Origin: Cyanidioschyzon merolae
Lineage: Eukaryota
Assembly: GCA_000091205.1 (NCBI GenBank)
Contig: AP006502.2
Strand: one strand, 5' to 3'
Length of the DNA stretch: 64,000 nucleotides
Positions 1 to 62,247 of the stretch are shown piece after piece (positions within the stretch are counted from its first letter, which is position 1; every line of letters starts with the position of its first letter). The notes under the pieces were generated by a model that was not told the origin of the DNA, did no database searches, and saw only the letters and a program-made list of their open reading frames with translations. The position numbers were made by a program, and so were the translations under genes.

Positions 1-137
1 CCACGTATGCGGAAGATGGGACTGATGGTAACTTCCGTCAGAAAGATATGCGTCTTTTGAGGTTCTCGAGAGCAAGATACTATCGAGAATCGGGAATCAT
101 GAATGCGAGGTAGAAAATTTGTACGTGGAATTCAGGA

Positions 138-749
138 ATGAAAGATCCCCTGGAAGCTTCGAGCGAGGTGACGAGCCGAGGAGCGGACTTTGAAGCTTTT
201 CGGAAATTCATGGAAGTTCGCATGGCGCATTGGGAGGCGCTGTGGGAGGAGTATACAAAACCCCGGTGGGCTCGTTTGCATATGAATTTGTATTGTGGTA
301 AGCAGCGGGCGTTCGCGAATTTTTTCAATCAGTTAAGTGACCTGAAGGAGGATGGAAATCAGAGGCTCGTCGTAGCATACGGAGCAGGGCACTGGAAGAC
401 CCGAAAAGGGTGTACACCAGCTCCAACGACAAGAACGTACAAAGAGTGTGCACGGCGTTTCGTTACGATACCTGTAGATGAGTTCCGAACCTCGTATACA
501 CACCATGAACTGGGGTGTACACTTCAGAGAGTGGAGATGGAAAAGTGTCAGCGGAGCCCTGAAGATATAAAAAAGTACGGACCGCTGACGGAGGAGCAAA
601 TGGAAAGGAGGGCACAAGTTCCAGGACTTCTTGCATTAGTGAGTACAACGAGTGACGGCAAGAAACGGATGGAGTTTGTGAATTGAGACTTTAACGCCGC
701 AATCAATATCCGGAGATGTGCGGTGCTGGAGAGAAGACCTCCAGAATAG
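138..749 (+). pseudogene. Decayed TnpB/Fanzor-like (IS605 OrfB-type, RuvC-like) nuclease remnant, C-terminal part only. It has in-frame stops and upstream frames are closed; the element probably extends beyond the window start.
   Basis: Translation shows LVVAYGAGHW..KG (G-D-W-like stretch), then VDEFRTSYT (RuvC-II E..TS motif), then a degenerate Zn-finger region. A TGA stop at 684-686 sits immediately before DFNAAINIRRC, which is the RuvC-III D.NAA.NI signature. All three frames upstream of 138 are closed. Confidence 0.6.
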
Positions 750-974
750 ACAAGAGTGAACTTTATTGGACAACCTCTCAAAGTCGAACTATATGAGAAA
801 AAGTTGGAAGCAGTAGTGGGTGGCCGCTCCAAAAAGACGGGAAGGCGTCTGCACCTCAGTTGAAGACTTCTTGTCGAGAGCGGGTTTCTCGCCACTACTG
901 TACACCGTTGGCGTCGTTCGACTTTCGAACGGCGTTGATGGTGCCACTATTCTGCCGTGTGTCATTCTGAGTGC

Positions 975-2636
975 TCAGCGAATCGCGTCGTTCTTATCAC
1001 TGGTCTCCGTTTTGAGGGTTTCGTCAATGCTGAGAATCGTGCATGCAGCCTCCGTTGCCGAAGCAAATGCATTGGCACGAATCAGGACCGGTTCCCAGAC
1101 ATAGTTCTGCCAGCAGTCTTGCGGTTCACCGGTTTCCAGGTTTGCTCCGAACCAGAGATTCTCGTCGCTGGTCGCGTGTTTTGCCCGTAGTTTGTTGAGG
1201 AGGTCAGTGGCGTCAAAACCAGCATTCTCACAGAGTGTGCGGGGTATGGTCTCGAGTGCTTTGCCGTAAGCCGCGAGCAAGAGCTGCGCTTTGCCCTGGA
1301 TATGCCTAGATCGCTCCCGCAGAAACTTGCTGAGCTCCATTTCGACAGCGCCGCCACCAGCCACCAGCTCGGGGTACTTGAGCGTACGTCTGACAATCAT
1401 GATGGCGTCGTGTAGGGAACGCTCGGTTTCATCGAGGAATTGCTCGGATCCGCCGCGGAGTAAAATGGTGGCCGACCGAGCCTCCTTGCATCCAGTGAAA
1501 AAGTTAAAGCGCTCCGCTCCGACCTGCCGCTCTTCGAACCACTCACAGGTACCCAGAGCCTCTTCCACTCGCATATCGTGAACAGTGGTCTGAACGCGGG
1601 CACCGACCGCTCGCGCCACCCGCTGCAGATCGGCATCGGGAACACGACCAGCACAGAAAACTCCGCGATCAGCGAAGTACTGCGTCGCGAGATCGCCAAT
1701 TGCCAGCCGGGAGAGCACAACACGAGCTCCAGTGGCCACTATTTTCTCAAGTTTCTCGTAGATGATATTCCACTCCGCGTCCACGATTTGCTGGTAAGCA
1801 GCAGCGGATTGCACCCGCACCTCCGCATTCTCCTTCTCGGACTTGAGTTCCAGTTCTAAGTTTAACAGCAGAATCTTGGGTTGATGTATCTTCTTCGGCT
1901 GCTGCTCAAAGCCGGCATAGCTGAACGTCTTCTTGAAGCCGACACCCGCGACGAGGCACGAGTCCGTCACACTGCCACCATTGACCTTTTTCACGCCGAT
2001 CATGTCCAGGTCCAGATCATCATCCAGGGCGAGGACTGCATCAACAGCTATACCTGCGAAAAATTCACGGTATTGCGCGATGAGCTTGCTGTTGAGCGCC
2101 GTCCCCGCACAGCGCTGTAGCAGGGCGCGAGCGGCCTCACGTTCTTCTGTGGAAACGCGTTCGGGATCGGCGCGCAGGACCTTCAGTTGACCGCTCACAT
2201 CGACCGCGATCTGCTTCAAGCGCTCCGAGATCATGCGGTGTGCCTCGCGATAAGCGTAGATGATAACGCGTGGGTGCACGCCGTCCTCGAGAAAGCCCTT
2301 CGCCTGACGCAGCAGCTCGCCTGCCAGCAGCACTACCGACGTGGTACCGTCACCGACTTCCTCGTCTTGAGACTTGGCGATGTCAGCTAGCAAACGAGCC
2401 GCAGGATGCACAACTTCGAGCACTCGAAGGATCGTCGCGCCGTCATTCGATATAGTGACCTTGCCGTCGCTCCCCTGGATGAGTTTATCCATGCCTCGCG
2501 GGCCCAGTGTGCTGTGCAACACCTCTACAACCTGCTCGCAGGCGTTGATGTTGGATATGATCTGCCCGATACCTTGTGAAGCGTCCACGTCATCTTTGAG
2601 GATAATGATCGGAGGATAACCAGAAACCTGCGCCAT
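975..2636 (-). CDS. CCT7: T-complex protein 1 subunit eta (CCT7, group II chaperonin). The ORF runs on to 2771, but the conserved start is [16 protein letters not shown] at 2636.
   Basis: 598-aa ORF with [13 protein letters not shown] and the equatorial/apical domain motifs. It aligns near full length to CCT eta (e.g. [16 protein letters not shown] and [11 protein letters not shown] equivalents). Confidence 0.9.
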
Positions 2637-3631
2637 GAACGCGAGCCTAACCACAAGCGCGTAACCCCCGTCGACGCCGAAAGCGCAGGCACGGCAGCCG
2701 CGGACGCACTGCGCACCGCCGAAGCGGATGGAACGCGGCACGCGGGCGCGCGTAACACAAGTTCGGTCCAAGGTACTTCGCAGAACTTTTTAACTCCAGG
2801 CGAGTCGCTCTCTTCTCTAGCCGCACCGGTGGGTCTCCTGGTGGCACCCGGACAGCGCTGGGTGTTCCACTGACGCTTGGAGGTGTCTCGTATACAACGA
2901 CAGCGTTACGTGCAGGATTGCTGACGCCGGCGCCTGGGAACTTTGACCACTGCGTCGCGCACGAGTTGTGCGCTATACGGGCGTCTGAGAAAAGTCACGC
3001 GCACCTGTCGCGGTGTAGCTACTGCTAGTTGGTGACGCTAGCCAATAGTGGGTGAAGCGCAAACCGAGTGCGCTACGGGAACGTTTTCGAGCGAGGAATC
3101 AGGGCGTGAACGATTCGGGACACGAGCGTCTTCGGCAGCACGTTGTCGGCCGTGGACAGTGGTCAAAGTACTGAGACTTGACGCAGTCACACGAACTTGC
3201 GTCTGGGGGGATTGCCTCGCGCCCTCCAGTGACACACGAGGGGTTACCACTGCTGTTCGGCAGTGGCCCGCAGTGGTGGACACGCAGCGTGTCCGTTTCC
3301 CGCCAGTGCACGCATCAGCAGAGCGCGCCTGCGTGCTTGTTGGACACGTGTCCAACGATCCGCTTTGCACTGCAGGGGAAGCGCTTGGGGGCTGTGTTCA
3401 GCAGCTGCGGCTGCAGCAACAACAACACCAGCAAGAACAGCGACAACTGCTCAGGCTTCTCTAGGAAGCAGCTGCGAACCAGAACATTTCTCTGTCGAGA
3501 ATCGAAAAGCCTCGTTCACAAGCGTGTGCTTCATTCTTCAGGAAACATCTAGTCCGACATAGGCGCATTTCTTGGCGACACGCGCTATCTTCTGATCGCT
3601 GTTGTCGCACGAGCTAGTATCGTAGAAACTG

Positions 3632-4678
3632 GTGTTTTCTGCAATGGTGCAGTCGGTAAACCTGGATACGGGGCAAGCGGAGGAATTCGAGTTGAAGCAG
3701 GGGCAGTGCGGTGCCGCACAGGAACCGCTCATACCAATCCGCATCGATGTGCAGTGGAACGATGCCCGTGTTGTCGATGCCTTTCTTTGGAACCAATATG
3801 AAGAACGCCTCACACCGGAGACGTTTGCCCCACACCTGCTCCGGGATCTGCAGCAACCTATGGAGCTTGCAAACGGTGTTGCGTCCGCCATTCGCGAGCA
3901 GATAGAGCAGTACTCTCCCTTTGAACACGAGCTATTCGCGGATCGTTCCGAGTTGCGCCTGCTCTTTACCTTGGATGTGCGAATAGGGAATATCCAGCTA
4001 CAGGATACCTTTGAGTGGGATGCGCTCTCATTCGAAAGCGATCCCGAGCAGTTTTCGCGGATGCTCTGTCGAGAACTGGGCCTTGGAACAGAGTTTAGCA
4101 CCGCCATCGCCCATGCGATTCGTGAACAGTTGCAGGACGTTTGGGCGGGTGTCGCTTACTCCCAAAAAAGCATTCTGGAATCCGTGCATCCGCGTATAAC
4201 GATTCGGGATGGCGAAGATTGGGAGCTTCCGGGTCCCGCGGTGCGCGTGCTCTCCAAGGAGGAACTCGAAGAGGTGGAGCGGCGTGAGGATCGCAGTGCT
4301 CGCGCCATGCGTCGCAGTCAGCGCAAATCCGGGCTGAGCTGGGGCCTGGCCCCAGCGCCAACGCTCCGGGAGCGCTCCGTGGACAGCACTGTGTTTTTCG
4401 GGCCGCGGCAAGCCGTGGCCGAAGAGCGCCCCAAACGGCGTCGCAACCAGAATCCTGTTGACTCTGAGGGTCGGCCCGTCGTAGCCTGCAGCCATTGTGG
4501 TCGACATCCGTCAAAAACGCCTTTAATGCGAGTTGGACCACGTGGTCTCAAGAACGAAATCTGCAATAGTTGTGGCCTGTACTATCGCAAATATGGAGAG
4601 CTTCCCACGCATTATAAGGGCTATCCCATTGGGCCTGGGTATCCGCCACCTCCTGGAAGTCAGGAACATGATGCATAA
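3632..4678 (+). CDS. SNF5/SMARCB1-family protein (SWI/SNF core subunit) with both SNF5 repeats and a C-terminal GATA-like C4 zinc finger.
   Basis: Rpt1 (LIPIRIDVQWNDARVVDAFLWN...ASAIREQIEQY) and Rpt2 (RIGNIQLQDTFEWD...LCRELGLGTEFSTAIAHAIREQL) align to SMARCB1/BSH. The C-terminus reads CSHCG...TPLMRVGPRG...CNSCGLYYRK. Confidence 0.8.
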   Translation: MFSAMVQSVNLDTGQAEEFELKQGQCGAAQEPLIPIRIDVQWNDARVVDAFLWNQYEERLTPETFAPHLLRDLQQPMELANGVASAIREQIEQYSPFEHELFADRSELRLLFTLDVRIGNIQLQDTFEWDALSFESDPEQFSRMLCRELGLGTEFSTAIAHAIREQLQDVWAGVAYSQKSILESVHPRITIRDGEDWELPGPAVRVLSKEELEEVERREDRSARAMRRSQRKSGLSWGLAPAPTLRERSVDSTVFFGPRQAVAEERPKRRRNQNPVDSEGRPVVACSHCGRHPSKTPLMRVGPRGLKNEICNSCGLYYRKYGELPTHYKGYPIGPGYPPPPGSQEHDA

Positions 4679-5950
4679 GGATTCGTCCACACACGAGATA
4701 AGGAGGAGGTGCGAGCGGCACCAAGAACGGCAGCATCGTCGCATTCGACTTGTCCCGGGCGTAGCGCTGGCGCCTTTAGCCCCAGTTGATGCTGCCATTT
4801 TCGAATGCATCGTAGCGCGTATGTCGTCGCCCCGTCAGATGCACGAAAGTATTTGGCAATTGTGTCGCGGTCTGCGCTAGACAGGCGTTTTGGAATCCTA
4901 TGTTTTCAGAACCGCACATGCGCCATGATATCATACGAAGCGCGTATGGCATCGCCACCGATGGTCACAATCCGCAGATGCTGGTGCTAACCTGAAACGA
5001 CGGCGAGTGCTGCGTTCCGGAGACAACGTGTGCCTGCGTGCCTCGCCTCGGTGCGCGGCGTAGCTGCCGGGCTCACTCTGAGCGCCCCATACAGCTCGAG
5101 GAGATGCTGCGAATTGTGTGTCAGTACCGGCTCGTCGTTTTCCTCGTCCGATATCCGCGCTAATTGCTGTGTGCGAATGATACGCTTTAGCTAGTACCGC
5201 TATGCGATAGCCGCTAGCAGCCCAAGACCTGGGAGGCCCAGCGACCTTGCCATCGCCCAGTTCACGCGCATCCGCCAACCATTCCTGGCATGGCGGATGT
5301 GTCTTCCGAATCTGTGTGCCTCGGCCGAAACGGAGGCTTGTATGCATCCATTCCCGAAAAGAAGTTCGGCGAGCCGTGTGCGTCCTCCGGAATTTCGTGT
5401 GGCGATACGTCGACCCGGACTTTGCCCTGTGCTAGATCCATCGGCGGGGGTGGGCTCCATTGCGGGGATGCGCTCTAAAGCCTGCGCATCGGCGCGCAAG
5501 TACCCGGTTGCACGAAAGCGCTTCCCTCAGGTTTCCAGGTGTCACCAGACGCTGTCCTTCGGCTCGCGAATAGGTCCACGCGGACCTGGAATCGCCCTGA
5601 TCGCGCTGCTGGCTTAAGAACGGACGCTAGACGCACATGTACGCTTGAAACTGGGCGCTCGCCAACGGTCCAACGCTTGACCAGAGTCGAGACGAGTGCG
5701 ACCCTAGAAAGGTCCAGAAGACGTCGGTGATTCTGACGGTTTTTGCGCAAATGCATACGGCTCGAGCTAGGCGCCGTTGTTTCCGAACGCGCACACCTAC
5801 GCACAGCGTTCGCTCAGCTGCAGCCGGGCACCGAATCGCGACAACGCCTACGATCCGCCTAGATCCATCGTAATCATGCCGATAGACGGAAGCAATGGCC
5901 GCTTGCCGTGTCTGCTGGTGGCTGCATGCGATGCAGGTACGCTCTAGGCG

Positions 5951-15600: not shown

Positions 15601-17292
15601 GTTTCCTTAGGCCAGCGTTCTCCGATTATGCGCTTTTTTCTTTTCTTTCTTTTTTTTCAGTGCGCGGTGAGGTATCCATCAAACGCCCTACTTCCATGTT
15701 ACTTGACCTATACTTCGTCTCGGATATTCTGGTCGTTTCACACGTCCTATTGTGTGTGCCAAGTGCCTGCCGAAAGCGACCGCAATAGCGCCTATAGCGT
15801 CGGTGCGGTCGCTGCACGGAGACAGAGCGGCGTTGCCGTACCACACACAGGGGGCGTCAGCTCGTGTTTCCGCCTCCGATGCGCACACGTTGCACAGCGT
15901 GCATGCGTGCGTGCCTCTTTATCCGTAGAGCGTTCGCTGGCAAGTGCTTCGTAGCATCCATGTGTACCATGGAAGACTAGGGTCGAGCAACTCGCTCCGT
16001 TCGAGCGGGTAGGTAGAATCCAGAATTCATACGGTAGCTCAAATTTTTACATAAACTAGCGGGTGCGACGGCGGAGCTCGCAACTACATCCCGGCTGCGT
16101 CCCCGTCAACTGCCATCACGGATCGAGACACAGCCAACGCTCGGATATTGGATCCATGTATGCATCATGTTTACAGCGTTGGAAAAGTGTCGTCTATGCA
16201 TAGATCATGCCGAGTTGGGGTCTAAGTTACCCAAGCAACGGTCCATGTGCTGCAGGAGGCGCATGCTGCGGTGTGTCGCACAGCGCATCCAACTGAGTTT
16301 GCAGCACGTTTGAAAAGAGCTTCTGAGGGACTGATTTCGTTTCGAACGTGGCTGAGAGTCGTATGCACCTCACGGGTAGTGCTTTCGTTTACAAAAGAGG
16401 CTCAGAAGCAGCTGCACACTTTCCGAATGAACGCGCTCGCAGCGAAGGCGTCAATGCTCTGGATCCATGTGTGCGCGCACGCCCGCTCAACAAAAACGAG
16501 CGTGCCGATACGCATTGCGATTATAGGGAATCCCGGGTTCGCGTCAGTGATCCTGCACACCCCAGCGAAAACGCCATGATACAATGCGATACCGAGAGAG
16601 TACGGCGCTCACTCGATACCGGATCCAGCCGAGAACTGGCGCTGCGTAGGCGAGACGGTTCGAGAAGTGCAGTCAGGCACCAGCGATGACACGCTCCATC
16701 GAGAATAGGTACTGTTTTCTAGGTTGATCGCAGATATCCACGTCTCGATAGCCGATGCACAATACATTCGATGCTTGACGCGCACTTGAATGCCCAAAGA
16801 GGCGTTGATACGTCGCTGGTGAGCATGCGCAGCGGCGATGCCGAGGGTGAAGGTCATCGGGCTCAATGTCACGGGGAGCTCGCGACCAGCGCCATGGATA
16901 CTGCCCGCGATTTCGAGTCCATACGCGGTAGCACCTATTCGTTTCAGATGTATCGTTCCGGAGCGTCACCGGCATCTGCTCATCGTCAGAACCCGACACC
17001 CCCAGGCAGCGGGAGGTCCTCATTGCGCAGTCCAGGCCAGGTTCCCGAGGCCTCACCCGCCCCCCGGATTTGTGCATCGTCTATGGCGGGACCTTCCATG
17101 GGGCACGCATACGCTGCATACCAGTACCGTATGCACGATTTTCGACATCACCATGTAAGGCCCCTTCGCAGGTGCTGCTGGCGTCGCTACGCGCATGCAG
17201 CAGCAACATCGGCGACGAACAGGTATCGCATGTGTTGCCGGCAGACGCTCTGGTCAGCGTCGGCAAAACTCGCAGTGTCCCATGAACCAAGT

Positions 17293-32728: not shown

Positions 32729-34332
32729 CTCGGACGCTGCTTCTGTCTATCCAGTACGCGCAGGTGCCTGGAGCCATGGATATGACTTGCTAGCGCTGAT
32801 CCTCTTCTAGTTGCAGGCTGCACGAGTTGGTATGATGTCACGCGTGACGCCGCGTCCCGCAAGGTGTCTGCTGGACGGCACTGTCTGCGGGTAACGGGTA
32901 TGGCGTGCTGCTACGGGTTGCTGTTACAGTGGACGCGCACCGCACAGGGGTTTTCAGTGCAGGTTTTGAGCGGGGCTCTGCGAATGCAAACACGAATGCT
33001 TGGGCGTCAGTGTGACTTGGCGTCACGTTCGTGCAGACCGAGCTTATCGGGAACGGGTGCACGATACACGCTGCCATTAGCTTCTGATCGCCCGGCGGAG
33101 GAGGTTGGTACGACGCAGTCTTGGTCGTTTCTCCTCAAGCCGTCGTTTCTTCTGAGGCACTTACTAAGACTCTTTACGGCTCGTCGGCATTCGTTTGGTG
33201 CAGCGGTAAAGCATCCAGGCGGCTTTTGGTGCACCAAGCGGTCCGTTTCGAGACTTGTTCACAGTGCGTTGCGCTTGTGACCGGGTTGCTTCGCATCCTT
33301 GGTCAATTGATATCGGAATATGTGTCACGCTTGTGTGGCCGCGCAACGACGTTGCCGGTTGATTGAAGACTCTCTTGACGGAGGCAAACATCGACGAGCG
33401 AGAAGTTTCCATTTGCTGCGATCGATTGCTTGAGTCTTTCGGAATCAAGCCTTGGTGTATATCTAGTTAATTCAGGCAATCGTGATCGCTATCTGCGAAA
33501 TTCCCGCTGTCTCGCCAACATCATCCGATTTGGGCTTCTGAGGCAGTGCGGGAACCATAGCAGTGGACGAACTTTGCGAATGGCCGTCCTCACGTCTGAG
33601 AACGACAAAGGAGTAACACCACACGCGTCAAGCATCCTAGCTGGAACTCTATGCAGTGTGGAACGATGTGGCATGCTCGCGAATACCGAATCATGGAAGA
33701 GCATTATCGTTTGTCCATTTTCTGAGCAAAGCGTTCCCGGTTTATGTATATTGGACTGCATCCTTGCTGGTTTGTTGATCATTCTGTACCAGAGGATTGC
33801 TCCGGGCGAGAAGAAGTTGTCCGGCGCTTGGCCACGTATCCCTTTTCATCAAAAGTCTTCAGCATTTTAGCAAAATGCACTTACTGATTGCTTAGAGATT
33901 TCCGCGAAAGTTCGCTCGACACAAAACCGCGGGACGTTTCGGATACATGTGAAATTTCCGAATGTTGTTTCCAAGGTGTTCGAGTCCTGGTGCGGAAAGT
34001 GCCTGCGCGCATAGTTGCTAGAGAAACCGCACCATCACAAGCCACTGAACTGCGTTTGCCTCATAATCTGTCATTCGGTGAGCTCACTGCACACCTTCCC
34101 GTGCACCTGTCTCTATTTCGTGCTCTGTCTCTGTGACGGTGTCAATGTACACCTGGAATCGTGGTGCATGTATGGCGCCCAGAATTTTTCGATAGGTAAC
34201 CTGCGGAATCGGGTACTGGAGTCGCCGTCATCGTCGTCCGCTCTCGTCCGAGCAGGAGTGCAGCCTGTGCGCGCTGGAGCACGTCCAGCCCAATACGATA
34301 CCAGGAAACGACGCGACGTATTGGTCATTTTC

Positions 34333-34944
34333 TTAGCCAGCACGTTGAACGCTTCGGCGAATACGCGTTTCGTGCTTCCGCGTTACCGAAGAAGTTCTCG
34401 ACCGCAGCGCGGTCTCATGGTTTTCTACCAAAGATCGTCCGCATGTGCGATTTCGACGCTCGTTTTCGCTTTGAATCAAGAATGCAATGCATCCGTCTTC
34501 GCTCAGTACGGTGCTCCGAGCGTCTAGATGGGCAATGAGTGCGCCTATCCGCTTGGTAATATGCCTGCTGGCGTCGTGCATGCGTGACTCCCGACAAAAT
34601 CCTGGCATGGAAAAGAAGAGCAGCATCATTTGCTTCCCGTTCAGATCTTCGGGTCCGTCCTCATGATTTAGAAGTACGACAACGGCCAAGACATCTTTCA
34701 ACTCAGGAGTTTTACGCTCTATCAAATCTTTCTCTTCATCTACCTGGATCAGTTGAACATGAGTTTCGTTGGTTTTCTTATAACTAGGTTTCATAAAGTG
34801 CATGCAGATAGATATTCCATCGTTCTCCATGGGCCATGTACATTGCTGTCGAGTTCCTCCCTGTAGATGAAGATCCTTGATAGAGCTCGTCGAATACGCT
34901 TTGGAAAGCGGTTTGAGTGCTTCGTATTTGGCCGCAGAGGCCAT
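34333..34944 (-). CDS. Hypothetical ORF (203 aa) inside the lower-GC island. It may be spurious or a decayed element.
   Basis: ORF only, with no recognisable motif. Lies in the compositionally atypical 33.4-37.1 kb region. Confidence 0.15.
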   Translation of the reverse strand: MASAAKYEALKPLSKAYSTSSIKDLHLQGGTRQQCTWPMENDGISICMHFMKPSYKKTNETHVQLIQVDEEKDLIERKTPELKDVLAVVVLLNHEDGPEDLNGKQMMLLFFSMPGFCRESRMHDASRHITKRIGALIAHLDARSTVLSEDGCIAFLIQSENERRNRTCGRSLVENHETALRSRTSSVTRKHETRIRRSVQRAG

Positions 34945-37038
34945 CCATCGTTCACTGGCAAGTCCATATAGTCAAGTACACAAATCTCGCTGGCGGTATC
35001 ATGGGCACTGTTCTCACACATACCGACAACATCGAATGGAGAACCTTGGGGAGGCTAGGGCGCCCGCATACTGCACTTAGATAGTCTGCTTTGCTCTGGG
35101 CAGCTATCATCAGAAACACGCAGCATCGCAAGGTGCAAGCAAGGTAGGCAAACATCATGTTTGATCCATCGTTTGGATGCCACGTCCGCCGATCCGAGGC
35201 CGCGAACAGTGCCATAAGCTCGGATGATCCGAAGCGACTTTCGCTCTTGTCACAACATGCCGTCCAAAGTCGCCACATTCTAGTTCCACCGCCGCCACTA
35301 GCCCATCATTTGCATGAATAGACATCCCGAAGATGCATTCCACCAATCCCCATTTTTCTGGACACGCGGCGTGATGCTACAACGTCTTCAGAGTATCCCA
35401 TGTGAGGCGTTCGATATTCACCGGCATGTAGTGTCTGAGGTTGATTTGATACTTTTTGGAACCTGTGCTCCAGATGCTCCGATCGCCCACGTCGCCCAGC
35501 TACGATTCAGGGGTGCTCCGGAAACCACCAGGGCTTTTCTTTGGTCATCGAATCTGGCAGTATGGCATCTTATTTCTAGGGCATCTTTTGCGTCCTCGCA
35601 AGGAATTGATTGAAAAATTTGCGAATAATCTGGATAGCGGGCAACTCTGGGCCCGGAACTCCCACCTGCAGTTGCTTGAACAGAGGCTTCAAGGCGAGGA
35701 AGTCTAGTAGAGCGTTCCGCGGATAAGCAGCTTCGCGATCTGGAATCGTATCCTGCGATCTTCGGCGTCATGATGTCGAACGACCCGTCTACGAGCTCCT
35801 GAGCCTCATACGGCATTCGATATCGGAGAAGACGCCTGTGGCTGAATTGTGCTATGGAGAATAGACTGGAGCGGAGAGCAGCTCAACGTCGATCCGAGCA
35901 ACGTGTTCCTTGACTACGCTCGAGTGACGAAATGCGACCTTGTCTGAAAGCATCATTGAGGAATTTGGATAGAGGAAGCCCCGAAAACTGCTTCAATGAA
36001 CGATGCAGTTTTGACGAATCCAATATCTTTTGCGATTCTGGAGGAGGACTATATGATTGCATATTAGCTAAGGCTGATGTTTGTCGTACGGCTCGCTTGT
36101 CGCTTCTTAACGAACACCGATCTGTATCGGTTTGGGAATCCATTTCCAGGACAAGCATCTCCCTTGGATGAGGTCTCATCGAGTGAGACGAAGACTCGTT
36201 CCTCCTGTGCTCATTTTCGCGTTCCAATTCGAAATCGATAGCGTGTTGATCAAAGCGCGATCATCAGTTATAGAAGCGTGCTTCTTTCTTTGTTCATCCG
36301 TGTCTTGCTATTACCGATCGTATCAAAGGCCCGGAAACTTTACATTCTATGGGTTATTTCATGGCCTTTCTTCGAGAATAAATGGAATGGAATGAACTGA
36401 TCAGGAGATCGTAGTGTCAACAGAGATTCATACCTTCCGTTTTTAACTTACGACAGGCAGAACAGGGACCAGGAAAAGTACGGTTTAGCTACCTGCTGAA
36501 GGTAGAACAAATTAATTGTAAGTGTCCGGGCATCTCCCACAAGCTAGCAGTGACAGCATAACGTCTCGTCGCGACATGTCCCCAACTGCAATGTACATTT
36601 CTTCTGTTGAATACATTCCATCATAAACAAACCAAAAGAAAAGTGCCTGCTAGTACAGGCATTCCAGAATGCTGTTCCCCAAGTACAATCGTGTTTGACG
36701 GTACGGCTGATAGCCACCACGCTCGCTGGGCATTCCACGACGCCGCAACAGGCATGCTGGTTTCGCAACGACACCTGTTAGCATGTCGATAACCAAACTG
36801 ACATGGTGAGGATATTTCAATAAAACATCAAAGCGTCTTACTTTGAAGGGAATACTGCCGGTTGTCCGGGGCGCTTTTCGTCCGAAAGGCTGCAAACTGT
36901 CCAGGTGCCAACCATCAAGGACGCAACGATGATTTCTTCCTACCCAATGCGTATACGACCGCGAAAGACGTGCTTCGATCCTCGCTAACCACGCACTGGA
37001 CCATGCCGTTCTGCATGAATCGGAGAAACACCGATGAT

Positions 37039-58812: not shown

Positions 58813-58991
58813 ATGTGCATGGATAGAGCGTGGGAAGAGACTCCAGCTCATTTATCGGTGCTTGAAGCTTGTCATCGCTGCTCGGCTCCGTAGTCGCCCG
58901 TGTAAGAAAAGCGTGATCGATCTGGGAGCATCTTCGGTGCTGGATGCGTTCCCGCCACCTTTCCCGTACGCAGACAAGAGAGCAACACTGT

Positions 58992-59034
58992 GTCTCTGTT
59001 TCTGTCTCTGTCTCTCTCTGTGTGTGTATGTGTG
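58992..59034. repeat. (CT)n/(GT)n compound dinucleotide microsatellite.
   Basis: ctctgtttctgtctctgtctctctctgtgtgtgtatgtgtgtg seen directly. Confidence 0.8.
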
Positions 59035-59141
59035 TGAACGCTGACTCGAGGACGTTGGCTCCGGAGAGCTGTGTGCTCACTCGGCGCGTCGTCCTGCAAA
59101 ATAAGGGCAGGCGCCAGCACCCGCATGCCGCCTTTGCCCAG

Positions 59142-59780
59142 ATGAACACCGTTGGCGGCTCGAGATATCGGGGCGAGCGTCTTGTTCCTCAGTGCCAACG
59201 CATGGCGAGGTCTACTGGGACCTCTTTTAAGGAGAAACGTAGGCGTTTGGCCTCGGGAAGCGTTCTGTTTTCCAAGTGCTTACGCAAGTCATGTTGCGTT
59301 TGCCTGGACGCGACGCTGTCTGACTTTGAGAAAGCGGTTTATCACGTGGCCGCGAGTATCGAGCCGGGACGTGTCGCGACATACGGCACCATAGCGCAGG
59401 TGATTAAGCCAACGGAAGGCGCGCGAGCTGCTCGAGCCGTTGGCACTGCGTTGCGGAAGAATCCTTACTGGAAAGAGGGCTGCGTTCCTAAAGTTCCTTG
59501 CCACCGTGTCGTAGCGGCAGATCGGACGCTCGGTGGTTACATGGGCGTTAAAGACCCCAAAAGCACGCAGCTGGAGCGGAAACGCTGCATCATGCTTGAA
59601 GAGGGCGTGCCGCTGACGCGAAACAAGCGTGGTCAATGGGTCGTTGTGGAAAACGTCGCTGGAGGCGGCGGCACGAGCGCTGGGCAGCCGCTTCTGAGCC
59701 CCGCAGAGCTGCGCGCAATAGCTGCTACCTTCGCCAGCGCTTCTAGTCTTTCACCTGAAGGGTGTTCGACCCCCAGATGA
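59142..59780 (+). CDS. MGMT: O6-methylguanine-DNA methyltransferase (MGMT/Ogt), short form. Only the C-terminal DNA-binding/active-site domain is recognisable. The start is either ATG 59142 or ATG 59202.
   Basis: DFEKAVYHVAASIEPGRVATYGTIA...AVGTALRKNP...VPCHRVVAADRTLGGY contains the HTH, the Asn hinge and the PCHRV active-site cysteine motif. Confidence 0.75.
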   Translation: MNTVGGSRYRGERLVPQCQRMARSTGTSFKEKRRRLASGSVLFSKCLRKSCCVCLDATLSDFEKAVYHVAASIEPGRVATYGTIAQVIKPTEGARAARAVGTALRKNPYWKEGCVPKVPCHRVVAADRTLGGYMGVKDPKSTQLERKRCIMLEEGVPLTRNKRGQWVVVENVAGGGGTSAGQPLLSPAELRAIAATFASASSLSPEGCSTPR

Positions 59781-59799
59781 GTGTCATCAAAAGCGTTTT

Positions 59800-60200
59800 C
59801 GCGGTTTACATTAGATGCGTTCGAAGTGCGTTCCTTTGAAGAAATAAAAATCCAAGGGAGATGTATGAGCGTACAAGTCGGGGATCCTAGCGGGCCGTCC
59901 TAACCAGATTCTACGAAGACATGAAAAAATGCTCATCGCACCGACCCTCGATCGAAGAGGAACATATTCCGAAAAAGATGAAGAAGAGGGGAGACAGGCG
60001 AGAAATGGTGTTTGCTGCACGTCTCGATAACGAGACTGTAGTGGCACAGGGGCCGCGCGTTCGATGAACCCTTGCACTGGTGCGTTCAACCAGCGTCAAT
60101 GCACGCGAGGAGTTCGTGAACCGAGTCTTCAATGCCACCATCAATATCAGACGATGTGTGGTACTAAAGACGAGACCCGCGAAGCTGGCGCCGTTTATGT
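59800..60200 (+). pseudogene. Second, more degraded copy of the TnpB/Fanzor-like nuclease 3' region (about 75% nucleotide identity to 540-749). It has frameshifts and a stop.
   Basis: Translation R*TLALVRSTSVNAREEFVNRVFNATINIRRCVVLKTRP aligns with copy 1 GLLALVSTTSDGKKRMEFVN*DFNAAINIRRCAVLERRP. The catalytic D is replaced by V. Upstream, LDAFEVRSF corresponds to VDEFRTSYT in another frame. Confidence 0.55.
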
Positions 60201-62247
60201 TTCTGGGGCATGCTCTCAAACTCGTATCGTGCCTGGATAAACTGGAACCGACACCAGCCGGCCGATCAAAAAAGCGAGAGGCGTCTGCGCATCGATGCAT
60301 ATATACCCGTCATGGGCTGGAAACGTTTTTCGTTTTACGAACTATAACATATAGTATTGCTTGGGCATCGTATTCCAGGGGAATTCGCACTTGTTGCTGT
60401 CAGGGAGCATTGAGCTGTAATGGTGCATCCTGCGCTTCGAGTGATGCGTCGATGCAGCAACCATGCCACCGGAGCATGCGTCTCTACGAGAGGCGGTCAA
60501 TGCTGGGGCCGCACCGCATTGCGACGCGCCCCACGAGCAGACGTGCCTGCTGAGACGCCGCAAACCGGTTCTGAGTCCGTCCAACGACGCATTCAGCATC
60601 GTGTCGAGCGTTCACGGCACGCTGACCACACGAAAGCTCACTGGATGCATCAAGCCGGTAACCCGAACGGAAGTCTGGTCTGGGGTCAGTGAAACGGAGC
60701 GGTGACAGGAGCGGCGTGGCGAGCGCTTCGCACCTTGCGCTCATCAAGCACTCGTGGGTGGAGCTGCTCGTTCGAATCATCGAACGTTTGCCATTACAAA
60801 CTGTGCATCTCTGAACTTATTTCAGTGAAGAATGGCATAGGCCCACTTGGCTGGACCGGGTGTACGCGCTCAGGTTTGGTTCTCATGCTCTGATTGTCAG
60901 TACCAGTTATGGCAGGCGCTTCCTGCGACTGCCTCGGTTTCCTCTCTCACATCTTCGGCTTCCAGTACGTCGAGTTCTCCTTTCCCTATAGATTTGTTAT
61001 CAGCAATCGAAAGATATTGACGGCAGCGTTAAAGCCCCAATGTCGCAGCTTCCTCCCGTTATTCTCCTGAGGTACACTCAGCGAGAAGTTGCGATCTACG
61101 TTTCGCATGTCATTTCTATGCTCTTCGTATGCAGCCGCGGTGCACCTGTTGCAGCGGTACCATCGGGCCGAGTGCAAGCGTTCCCATGTGTATACCATAT
61201 CTTGGCGTTCGGTCGCCGCCCTGTGGCACGTAAAGGACTGCTTCAGCGGTCAGCACACGCCCATGACGGGTTCAGAAGGCTCACTTCGATATCCTCTTCT
61301 GTTTCCGCGCCCGGTGCCGTATCCGACGCTCGCGAGCTTGGTCTGGGCGATCCCCGCAGCGAGAACTCCATCTGCCGCACACGCAAGTGCACGCTGCCCC
61401 GCTCAGGAGAGGATTCGTGGTGCGCGATACTGTCCATAATGAACCCAAGTTTCTGAGGGACAAATGCAGGCCCAGGCAGAAATCGAGGAATTTCGATTTG
61501 TCGAAGCGCGCTTCCCGCAAAGCACTGATACGGTCCATTGGGATCAGTTGTTGCGGGGATCGTCGGTCGAGTCCCAGAAACTCTTGTGCGCAAACGGAAG
61601 ACACGTTAGCCTCTGAGAGAGTATCACGTAACAGGTGTCATGCTGGCGTGGAATTCCTTTTTTCGTCGATGAACAGAAGGAGAGGAGGATTCGTCTGTTG
61701 AACGAAATCCATGATCTAAGGTGACAAGTTCACCAGTTTTTGGGCAGGTGCTTGAGAACAAGTCGACAAGGCCCGACGTCGAGATGCTCTGGTCGTTAGT
61801 GCAGCGGCGGAGAACGCTGCACGCACGAGTTGCGTTGAAACAGAAACATTCAAAATCTCGAAGAATGCATGAGTTGAACATGCTATTCATGAGGAAAGGA
61901 CACGGTCGGAGGCTTCTACGCACGAACCAGATGATGATATCGCTCACTTGACGAATCTCTGTTTGGGGGCTTCACGAAGTATACTGGTGGCGGTGACGAC
62001 ACGAACCCGATGGTGAGCGCCTCGAGGCCACAAGTATCCGCAGCCGCTACTTCATACTGCTGGTGCTGCTGGTGCCGCCCTCGAGTCGCACCAGGGACAC
62101 ACTCGTATGTCTGAGAGGCACCGGGCCTCACGAGCGCATGGACACCCAAGCCTCTGCATATACTCGGGTCGAGTGACTCTGGCTTGTGCTCGCTGCGTGC
62201 ACGCGGTGCAATAACCATGGAGCAGGTCGAATCAAGACGCTTCGTCT

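Follow-up and report, generated by a model that had tools for sequence, protein, structure and literature searches.

A degenerate copy of the Fanzor1-encoding element CMe-1A beside a CCT chaperonin gene of Cyanidioschyzon merolae

The first 943 or so nucleotides (plus strand) of a 64,000-nucleotide stretch of the Cyanidioschyzon merolae genome (GenBank assembly GCA_000091205.1, contig AP006502.2), referred to here as the window, constitute the 3' portion of a CMe-1A copy that is dead and truncated at its 5' side; CMe-1A is an element of about 3.2 kb whose consensus encodes a Fanzor1 protein of 734 amino acids. The probability of this reading was put at roughly 0.94. Fanzor proteins were named by Bao and Jurka in 2013 (Mob DNA 4:12, PMC3627910), who listed a single Fanzor1 family for C. 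merolae, namely CMe-1A, with a consensus of 3169 bp and about 150 copies, each about 80% identical to the consensus and some still intact; the element has no terminal inverted repeats and no listed transposase, and its class was given as unknown (PMC3627910). The family was published in 2013, so the finding is already known. A previous interpretation of this DNA, the sequence-only reading, had seen in positions 138 to 749 the fossil of a TnpB/Fanzor-type RuvC nuclease or transposon copy. This view was supported, the fossil being a degenerate CMe-1A copy with a Fanzor1 affinity that emerged from profile searches, profile-profile comparison and a predicted fold.

The published consensus was taken from Additional file 2 of Bao and Jurka 2013 (PMC3627910). 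In a blastn comparison, positions 8-934 of the window aligned with CMe-1A nt 2240-3169 at 89% nucleotide identity over 930 nt (E=0), which is above the approximately 80% identity to the consensus that delimits the family. The alignment contained no frameshift and one 3-nt gap, which lay outside the coding sequence, and it stopped at the last consensus base; consensus nt 3169 corresponds to window position 934, and the copy thus carries the 3' terminus of the family. Moreover, a tblastn search gave 90% amino acid identity between the translation and residues 446-723 of the published CMe-1 protein. The stretch had 266 database homologues with 57-98% identity (E<=1e-3), nearly all of them in JGI and ENA metagenomes. 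An independent consensus built from 47 metagenomic copies held a single long open frame of about 730-790 amino acids, the length of which varied with repeat number, compared with 734 amino acids in the published protein. Six long ORFs of the window were exact matches to the C. merolae 10D proteins BAM83473-BAM83487. The window copy thus shares with CMe-1A its host genome, its motifs and its 3' tail, but differs from the consensus in carrying four nonsense codons, in being truncated at the 5' side near nt 2093, as judged from its ortholog, and in belonging to a subfamily whose 3' end lies about 9 nt past that of the published consensus, which completes a 19-bp hairpin. The coordinates of all features are collected in Table 1.

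Table 1. Features of the CMe-1A copy, with positions in the window (L002, orthologous metagenome contig)
Feature	Position	Strand	Remarks
CMe-1 Fanzor1 gene, coding remnant	1-878	+	Frame 3, codons from base 3; left side cut by window edge
Nonsense substitution AAG (K) to TAG	111-113	+	Relative to CMe-1A consensus; also in L002
RuvC-II motif VDEFRTS	474-494	+	Catalytic Glu codon 480-482, C-terminally shifted as typical of Fanzors
Equivalent of TNB/zinc-ribbon insert	495-683	+	Two His and two Cys; without CxxC...CxxC
Nonsense substitution CGA (R) to TGA	684-686	+	Arg of NRD motif lost, directly before RuvC-III Asp; also in L002
RuvC-III motif DFNAAINIRRC	687-719	+	Catalytic Asp codon 687-689, intact
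Nonsense substitution TTG (L) to TAG	747-749	+	Relative to CMe-1A consensus; also in L002
Nonsense substitution TGG (W) to TGA	861-863	+	Five codons ahead of family stop
Conserved non-coding 3' tail, right end of element	879-943	+	Candidate omega-RNA scaffold
Terminal hairpin, arms 903-921 and 925-943	903-943	+	19-bp stem with 5 G.U pairs, 3-nt loop

The translation of positions 138-749 in frame 3 reads LVVAYGAGHWKTRKG, VDEFRTSYTHHELGC and MEFVN up to a TGA stop, and continues as DFNAAINIRRCAVLERRPPE up to a TAG stop. The motifs claimed previously for this segment (VDEFRTS, TGA, DFNAAINIRRC) were borne out exactly by the translation, as was the position of the TGA directly before the catalytic RuvC-III aspartate. 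Several boundaries drawn in the sequence-only reading had to be moved. That reading held all upstream frames to be closed; homology in fact runs on in the same frame, as TYAEDGTDGNFRQKDMRLLRFSRARYYRESGIMNAR, to the first bases of the window (base 3/9), broken by the TAG at 111-113, and it is the window itself that cuts the copy. Its end point at 749 was too early, since the same frame continues as TRVNFIGQPLKVELYEKKLEAVVGGRSKKTGRRLHLS and the family coding region extends to about position 878. Finally, four nonsense codons were counted in place of the single interrupting stop. The coding remnant corresponds to CMe-1 consensus residues of about 444-734, that is, to CMe-1A nt 2233-3110. In the profile alignment, VDEFRTS pairs with DEFRTS of PpFz1 and DEYKTS of SpuFz1. 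The RuvC-III motif of the window coincides with the end of Pfam PF07282 (below threshold) and aligns with NRDxxAxxN of the solved Fanzor1 proteins; the intact family motif is NRDFNAAINI, of which the window copy has kept the Asp codon and lost the Arg codon to the TGA. The RuvC-I motif FVVGADPGNTNI, which contains DPG, is present in the family consensus, in longer homologues and in the orthologous contig, where it was found just left of the window start and hence outside the window, as a search upstream of the window had been expected to reveal.

At the right end of the element, the 47 copies stay conserved beyond the stop codon until window positions 934-946, where the conservation breaks down. 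The published consensus ends at position 934, while the subfamily of the window copy continues to about 943, and other copies show matching extensions. An omega-RNA-like region had earlier been guessed at 700-900, which proved misplaced, the conserved non-coding tail lying at 879-943. Besides the terminal hairpin, this tail holds small hairpins. When folded in the window, the terminal hairpin was more stable on the plus strand (-28.7 kcal/mol, z -5.7) than on the minus strand (-17.2 kcal/mol, z -2.4), and the sense strand was the more stable one in 30 of 34 distinct copies (mean -19.9 versus -14.1 kcal/mol, Wilcoxon p=4e-7), a bias behind which G+T-rich composition could partly lie. Two subfamily variants, with TCGACTTTCGA or TTTTTCTTTTGAAA in the loop region, both form a terminal hairpin in different registers. 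Because of these registers, RNAalifold sees almost nothing over the 3' tail (a weak consensus of -3.2 kcal/mol with 8 pairs). An Rfam scan of positions 1-1100 gave nothing meaningful. The omega-RNA of the TnpB and Fanzor systems characterised so far is a transcript of the element's right end that can overlap the stop codon; that of Fanzor1 is made up of stem-loops with the guide behind them. This makes the tail a plausible candidate for the end of the scaffold, and by analogy with these systems the hairpin is a candidate omega-RNA stem.

The same hairpin may instead be a cis-element of transposition, namely a single-stranded DNA hairpin comparable to the 3' hairpin of Helitrons or to the subterminal ones of IS200/IS605, which we consider possible but on balance unlikely, the two roles being mutually compatible. 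It forms the extreme end of the element and is kept in two subfamily variants, and its strand bias would equally suit a structure of top-strand single-stranded DNA, although G.T wobbles lend little stability in DNA. Chlamydomonas Fanzor1 genes ride in Helitron2 elements with terminal hairpins; CMe-1A, however, has no associated RepHel or HUH transposase and its class was reported as unknown (PMC3627910), and every TnpB or Fanzor system characterised so far has its omega-RNA encoded at the right end. A further point in favour of a transposition signal was noticed by eye: the 5' terminus of CMe-1A, GACAAAACGT (nt 5-14), is the reverse complement of ACGTTTTGTC (nt ~3099-3108) in the 3' tail. The latter site corresponds to window positions 867-876, where it is mutated, and lies upstream of the terminal hairpins. 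This pairing is reminiscent of the asymmetric terminal inverted repeats of Helitron2, with a rough chance of about 1e-3 that was estimated post hoc.

The death of this copy is evident from its own sequence and from an orthologous locus. It carries four nonsense codons (Table 1), and the TAG stop of the family reads GAG at positions 876-878. A contig from a hot-spring metagenome, L002, is colinear with window positions 13-4842 at 98.8% identity over 4.8 kb without a gap, which makes it the orthologous locus of a close strain, and it carries at least the first three of the stops, its protein alignment ending ahead of the fourth. To the left of the window, the copy in L002 includes FVVGADPGNTNI but breaks off near consensus nt 2093, against an inverted second CMe-1A fragment (nt 2140-2691). 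The window begins inside the copy, at consensus nt 2233, so the 5' truncation near nt 2093 is visible in the orthologous contig only; the locus in that strain therefore lacks the REC/WED half of the protein, and by inference so does the one in strain 10D. The relic differs from L002 at 21 positions in 846 nt, with 12 nonsynonymous and 8 synonymous codon changes, whereas the adjacent CCT chaperonin gene differs at 6 positions in 1704 nt, all of them synonymous (0 nonsynonymous). Such a pattern marks an unconstrained pseudogene older than the split of the two strains. In view of its four nonsense codons and its fast and unconstrained divergence, the copy does not have the intact ORF of a functional Fanzor1 member, and the earlier opinion that it is a fossil and not an active gene was upheld.

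It is very improbable that the 182-codon ORF at 138-686 is instead a short Fanzor-derived gene that has been domesticated and is still live, or that the stops are read through. The ORF is indeed open, a 98%-identical ORF of 182 amino acids has been called in a metagenome (P0001), and the catalytic Glu and Asp codons are intact. However, RuvC-II is the only RuvC motif within this ORF, RuvC-I being cut off by the upstream TAG and RuvC-III by the TGA; the stops at positions 111, 684 and 747 are fixed in the strain of the orthologous contig as well; the sequence has diverged about 7 times as much as the neighbouring CCT gene, mostly by nonsynonymous changes; the sequence was not found in the C. 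merolae 10D protein set; and the neighbouring genes use standard stop codons. We thus retain the reading of a dead copy. With its REC/WED half absent, as judged from the ortholog, and with four nonsense codons, the copy is unable to act as a nuclease and is inert sequence lying about 30 bp beyond the stop codon of the CCT gene. This gene (975-2771, minus strand) is intron-less, lies to the right of the relic and is convergent with it. The G+C content is 53% in the first 2 kb, compared with 55-60% in most of the window. In L002, two 5'-truncated CMe-1A fragments (13-563, minus strand; 560-1708, plus strand) stand head to head as a large, imperfect inverted repeat, and window positions 1-459 also align in reverse with L002 470-13 at 76% identity.

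The affinity of the family to Fanzor1 could not be read from curated models. A Pfam scan of the window translation and the reconstructed consensus returned only PF07282 (Cas12f1-like TNB, formerly OrfB_Zn_ribbon) with E values of 0.4-0.8 and 10-11 bits against a cut-off of 26.3, the match covering the last 11 profile positions; sub-threshold matches to this model also occurred at the right place in 5 of 10 sampled relatives. The score stays below threshold because the clade has lost the zinc ribbon. PF01385 did not match the window translation or the family consensus, an NCBIfam scan returned nothing, an exact look-up of the window ORF returned no record, and phmmer and hmmsearch runs against the PDB with the single sequence, the consensus or the narrow, window-anchored family profile (A1) yielded only noise. 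The sequence-only reading had declared that it should be abandoned if OrfB/TnpB profiles gave no significant match; none was significant, and applied as a rule this would wrongly reject the relic. A HMMER search with the family profile retrieved 1256 cluster representatives (50% clustering, E<=1e-3), many of them intact and 600-740 amino acids long. A second profile (A4), built from an alignment of 45 intact relatives of 600-740 amino acids, had exactly three matches in the PDB, all of them Fanzor1 proteins, namely Parasitella parasitica PpFz1 (9CF0, E 6e-19), Spizellomyces punctatus SpuFz1 (8GKH, 2e-10) and Guillardia theta GtFz1 (9CER, 5e-5). The two profiles matched each other in hhalign with a probability of 100% (E 5e-83), and the DPG, DEFRTS and NRD motifs of the family align with their counterparts in the three solved proteins.

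In addition, an AlphaFold (AF2) model of a family member (P0008), obtained with the deeper alignment, reached a pLDDT of 82 and a pTM of 0.78, compared with a pLDDT of 46 with a shallow within-family alignment, which was kept out of the fold search. In Foldseek, the top seven matches of this model were all structures of SpuFz1, PpFz1 and GtFz1 (E 3e-10 to 4e-7); Cas12 variants and ISDra2 TnpB (rank 9) came next, with E values of 6.5e-5 and weaker. Yoon et al. described DPG in RuvC-I and a C-terminally shifted RuvC-II glutamate as the Fanzor signature; both are present in the family, and the shifted glutamate is carried by VDEFRTS in the window. The CMe-1 clade shares with SpuFz1, PpFz1 and GtFz1 the RuvC fold and the order of DPG, shifted Glu and (N)RD, but is only 12-19% identical to them and does not have the CCCC zinc finger in the TNB segment. 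With prokaryotic TnpB (ISDra2, 8H1J) and Cas12f/Cas12 it shares the RuvC core, as found in the fold search, yet this similarity is far weaker than that to Fanzor1; unlike prokaryotic TnpB, the CMe-1 element, with a single long ORF in its consensus and no listed transposase, apparently lacks a TnpA, encodes a large N-terminal half and resides in a eukaryotic nuclear genome. It is thus hardly credible that the relic derives, by transfer or contamination, from the TnpB (OrfB) of a prokaryotic IS200/IS605 or IS607 element and not from a eukaryotic Fanzor, for although the RuvC-II and RuvC-III motifs are TnpB-like, PF07282 matches weakly and ISDra2 TnpB appears among the fold matches, the locus has genuine nuclear genes of C. 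merolae around it, Fanzor1 accounts for each of the three significant sequence matches in the PDB and for the top seven fold matches, the Pfam TnpB models stay below threshold, and DPG, the shifted Glu and a region of about 440 amino acids upstream of RuvC-I are as in Fanzor1.

The zinc finger requires separate consideration. The sequence-only reading had taken the two remaining cysteines of the Zn finger as a sign of decay. The count is true of the window sequence; its interpretation is not, since the intact family consensus has the same HH...C...C arrangement and the clade is alike. A CxxC between RuvC-II and RuvC-III was absent in 26 of 27 parsed distant intact relatives, which have 0-3 cysteines in total. 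A CCCC zinc finger, which SpuFz1 and TnpB are described as having in common and which serves as a mark of Fanzor1, was accordingly found neither in the window copy nor in the consensus nor in these 26 relatives. The loss is therefore a trait of the clade and not a consequence of decay; it weakens strict membership by motif, under the definition of Bao and Jurka (PMC3627910), and leaves the homology untouched.

For the intact relatives of this copy, a mechanism can be proposed by analogy. From the solved SpuFz1, PpFz1 and GtFz1, an intact CMe-1 member would be expected to be a RuvC endonuclease that binds an omega-RNA transcribed from the right end of its element, with the bases just beyond this end serving as the guide for cutting matching DNA; the intact relatives are thus most likely omega-RNA-guided RuvC nucleases. 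In the window copy, the structured tail with its sense-strand hairpin would be the likely scaffold end. We tentatively suggest, as a proposal that may well fail in one of its parts, that CMe-1 is a member of a large, zinc-ribbon-less Fanzor1 lineage with many intact representatives in environmental eukaryotes, that its long, sense-strand-specific right-end hairpin is the guide-proximal stem of the omega-RNA, and that a structurally divergent RNA-guided nuclease adapted to acid and heat could perhaps be recovered from it. The last part follows from the persistence of near-intact copies in hot-spring Cyanidioschyzon.

One such copy is a near-intact family member from a hot-spring Cyanidioschyzon population. 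In this locus (L007, 2429-4762, plus strand), an open frame of 778 codons covers CMe-1 residues 11-699 with DPG, DEFRTS and NRDFNAAINI intact, and extra copies of an acidic repeat of about 24 amino acids (KHEExKEADPATQEVQDNDxVVDA) lie just before RuvC-I. The CMe-1-like Fanzor1 clade represented in profile A4 (proteins P0204-P0348) has many intact members from metagenome or Logan assemblies. About twenty copies (loci L005-L081) begin at consensus nt ~640-700, without a 5' segment of 635 bp that resembles TE-N2_CMe; two elements may therefore have been merged in the published CMe-1A consensus.

Further traces of such elements were noted elsewhere in the window. A second, far more decayed Fanzor1-like relic (33978-35490, minus strand) covers family residues of about 130-660 with 26-31% amino acid identity to CMe-1 in its main segments; it contains stops and frameshifts, has lost the catalytic motifs and lies inside a gene-free stretch of lower G+C content at 32.8-37.6 kb. 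It may represent an older family, Bao and Jurka having listed one alone for C. merolae (PMC3627910). Two segments on the plus strand (59744-59850 and 60056-60316), about 200 bp apart, match CMe-1A nt 788-896 and 2850-2971 at about 75% nucleotide identity; with 54% amino acid identity over residues 648-721, reading NRVFNATINIRRC, they resemble a single copy with an internal deletion, from a diverged CMe-1 subfamily. The beginning of this copy coincides with the 3' end of an ORF (58944-59780) that contains a PCHRV motif and that we take to be methyltransferase-like. Moreover, a 178-bp match (15687-15864, plus strand) is 76% identical to CMe-1A nt 84-253, the part that CMe-1A is said to have in common with TE-N2_CMe, a separate element. 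An ORF on the minus strand (60986-61198) with HWGFNAAVNI, ending in HWGFNAAVNIFRLL, resembled RuvC-III at first sight and was rejected; no family protein aligns there, and the likeness is therefore probably due to chance.

In conclusion, the locus itself is of little weight, being one of about 150 decayed CMe-1A copies, and it is to be masked as a repeat or a pseudogene. As a calibration it is useful, given that a reading at the level of motifs recognized a Fanzor relic missed by curated HMM libraries, which fail here because the clade has lost the zinc ribbon on which those models rely. The clade-wide loss of the zinc finger and the strand-specific hairpin past the published end are leads for the reconstitution of a red-algal Fanzor1, and they belong to the family and are not properties of this dead copy.
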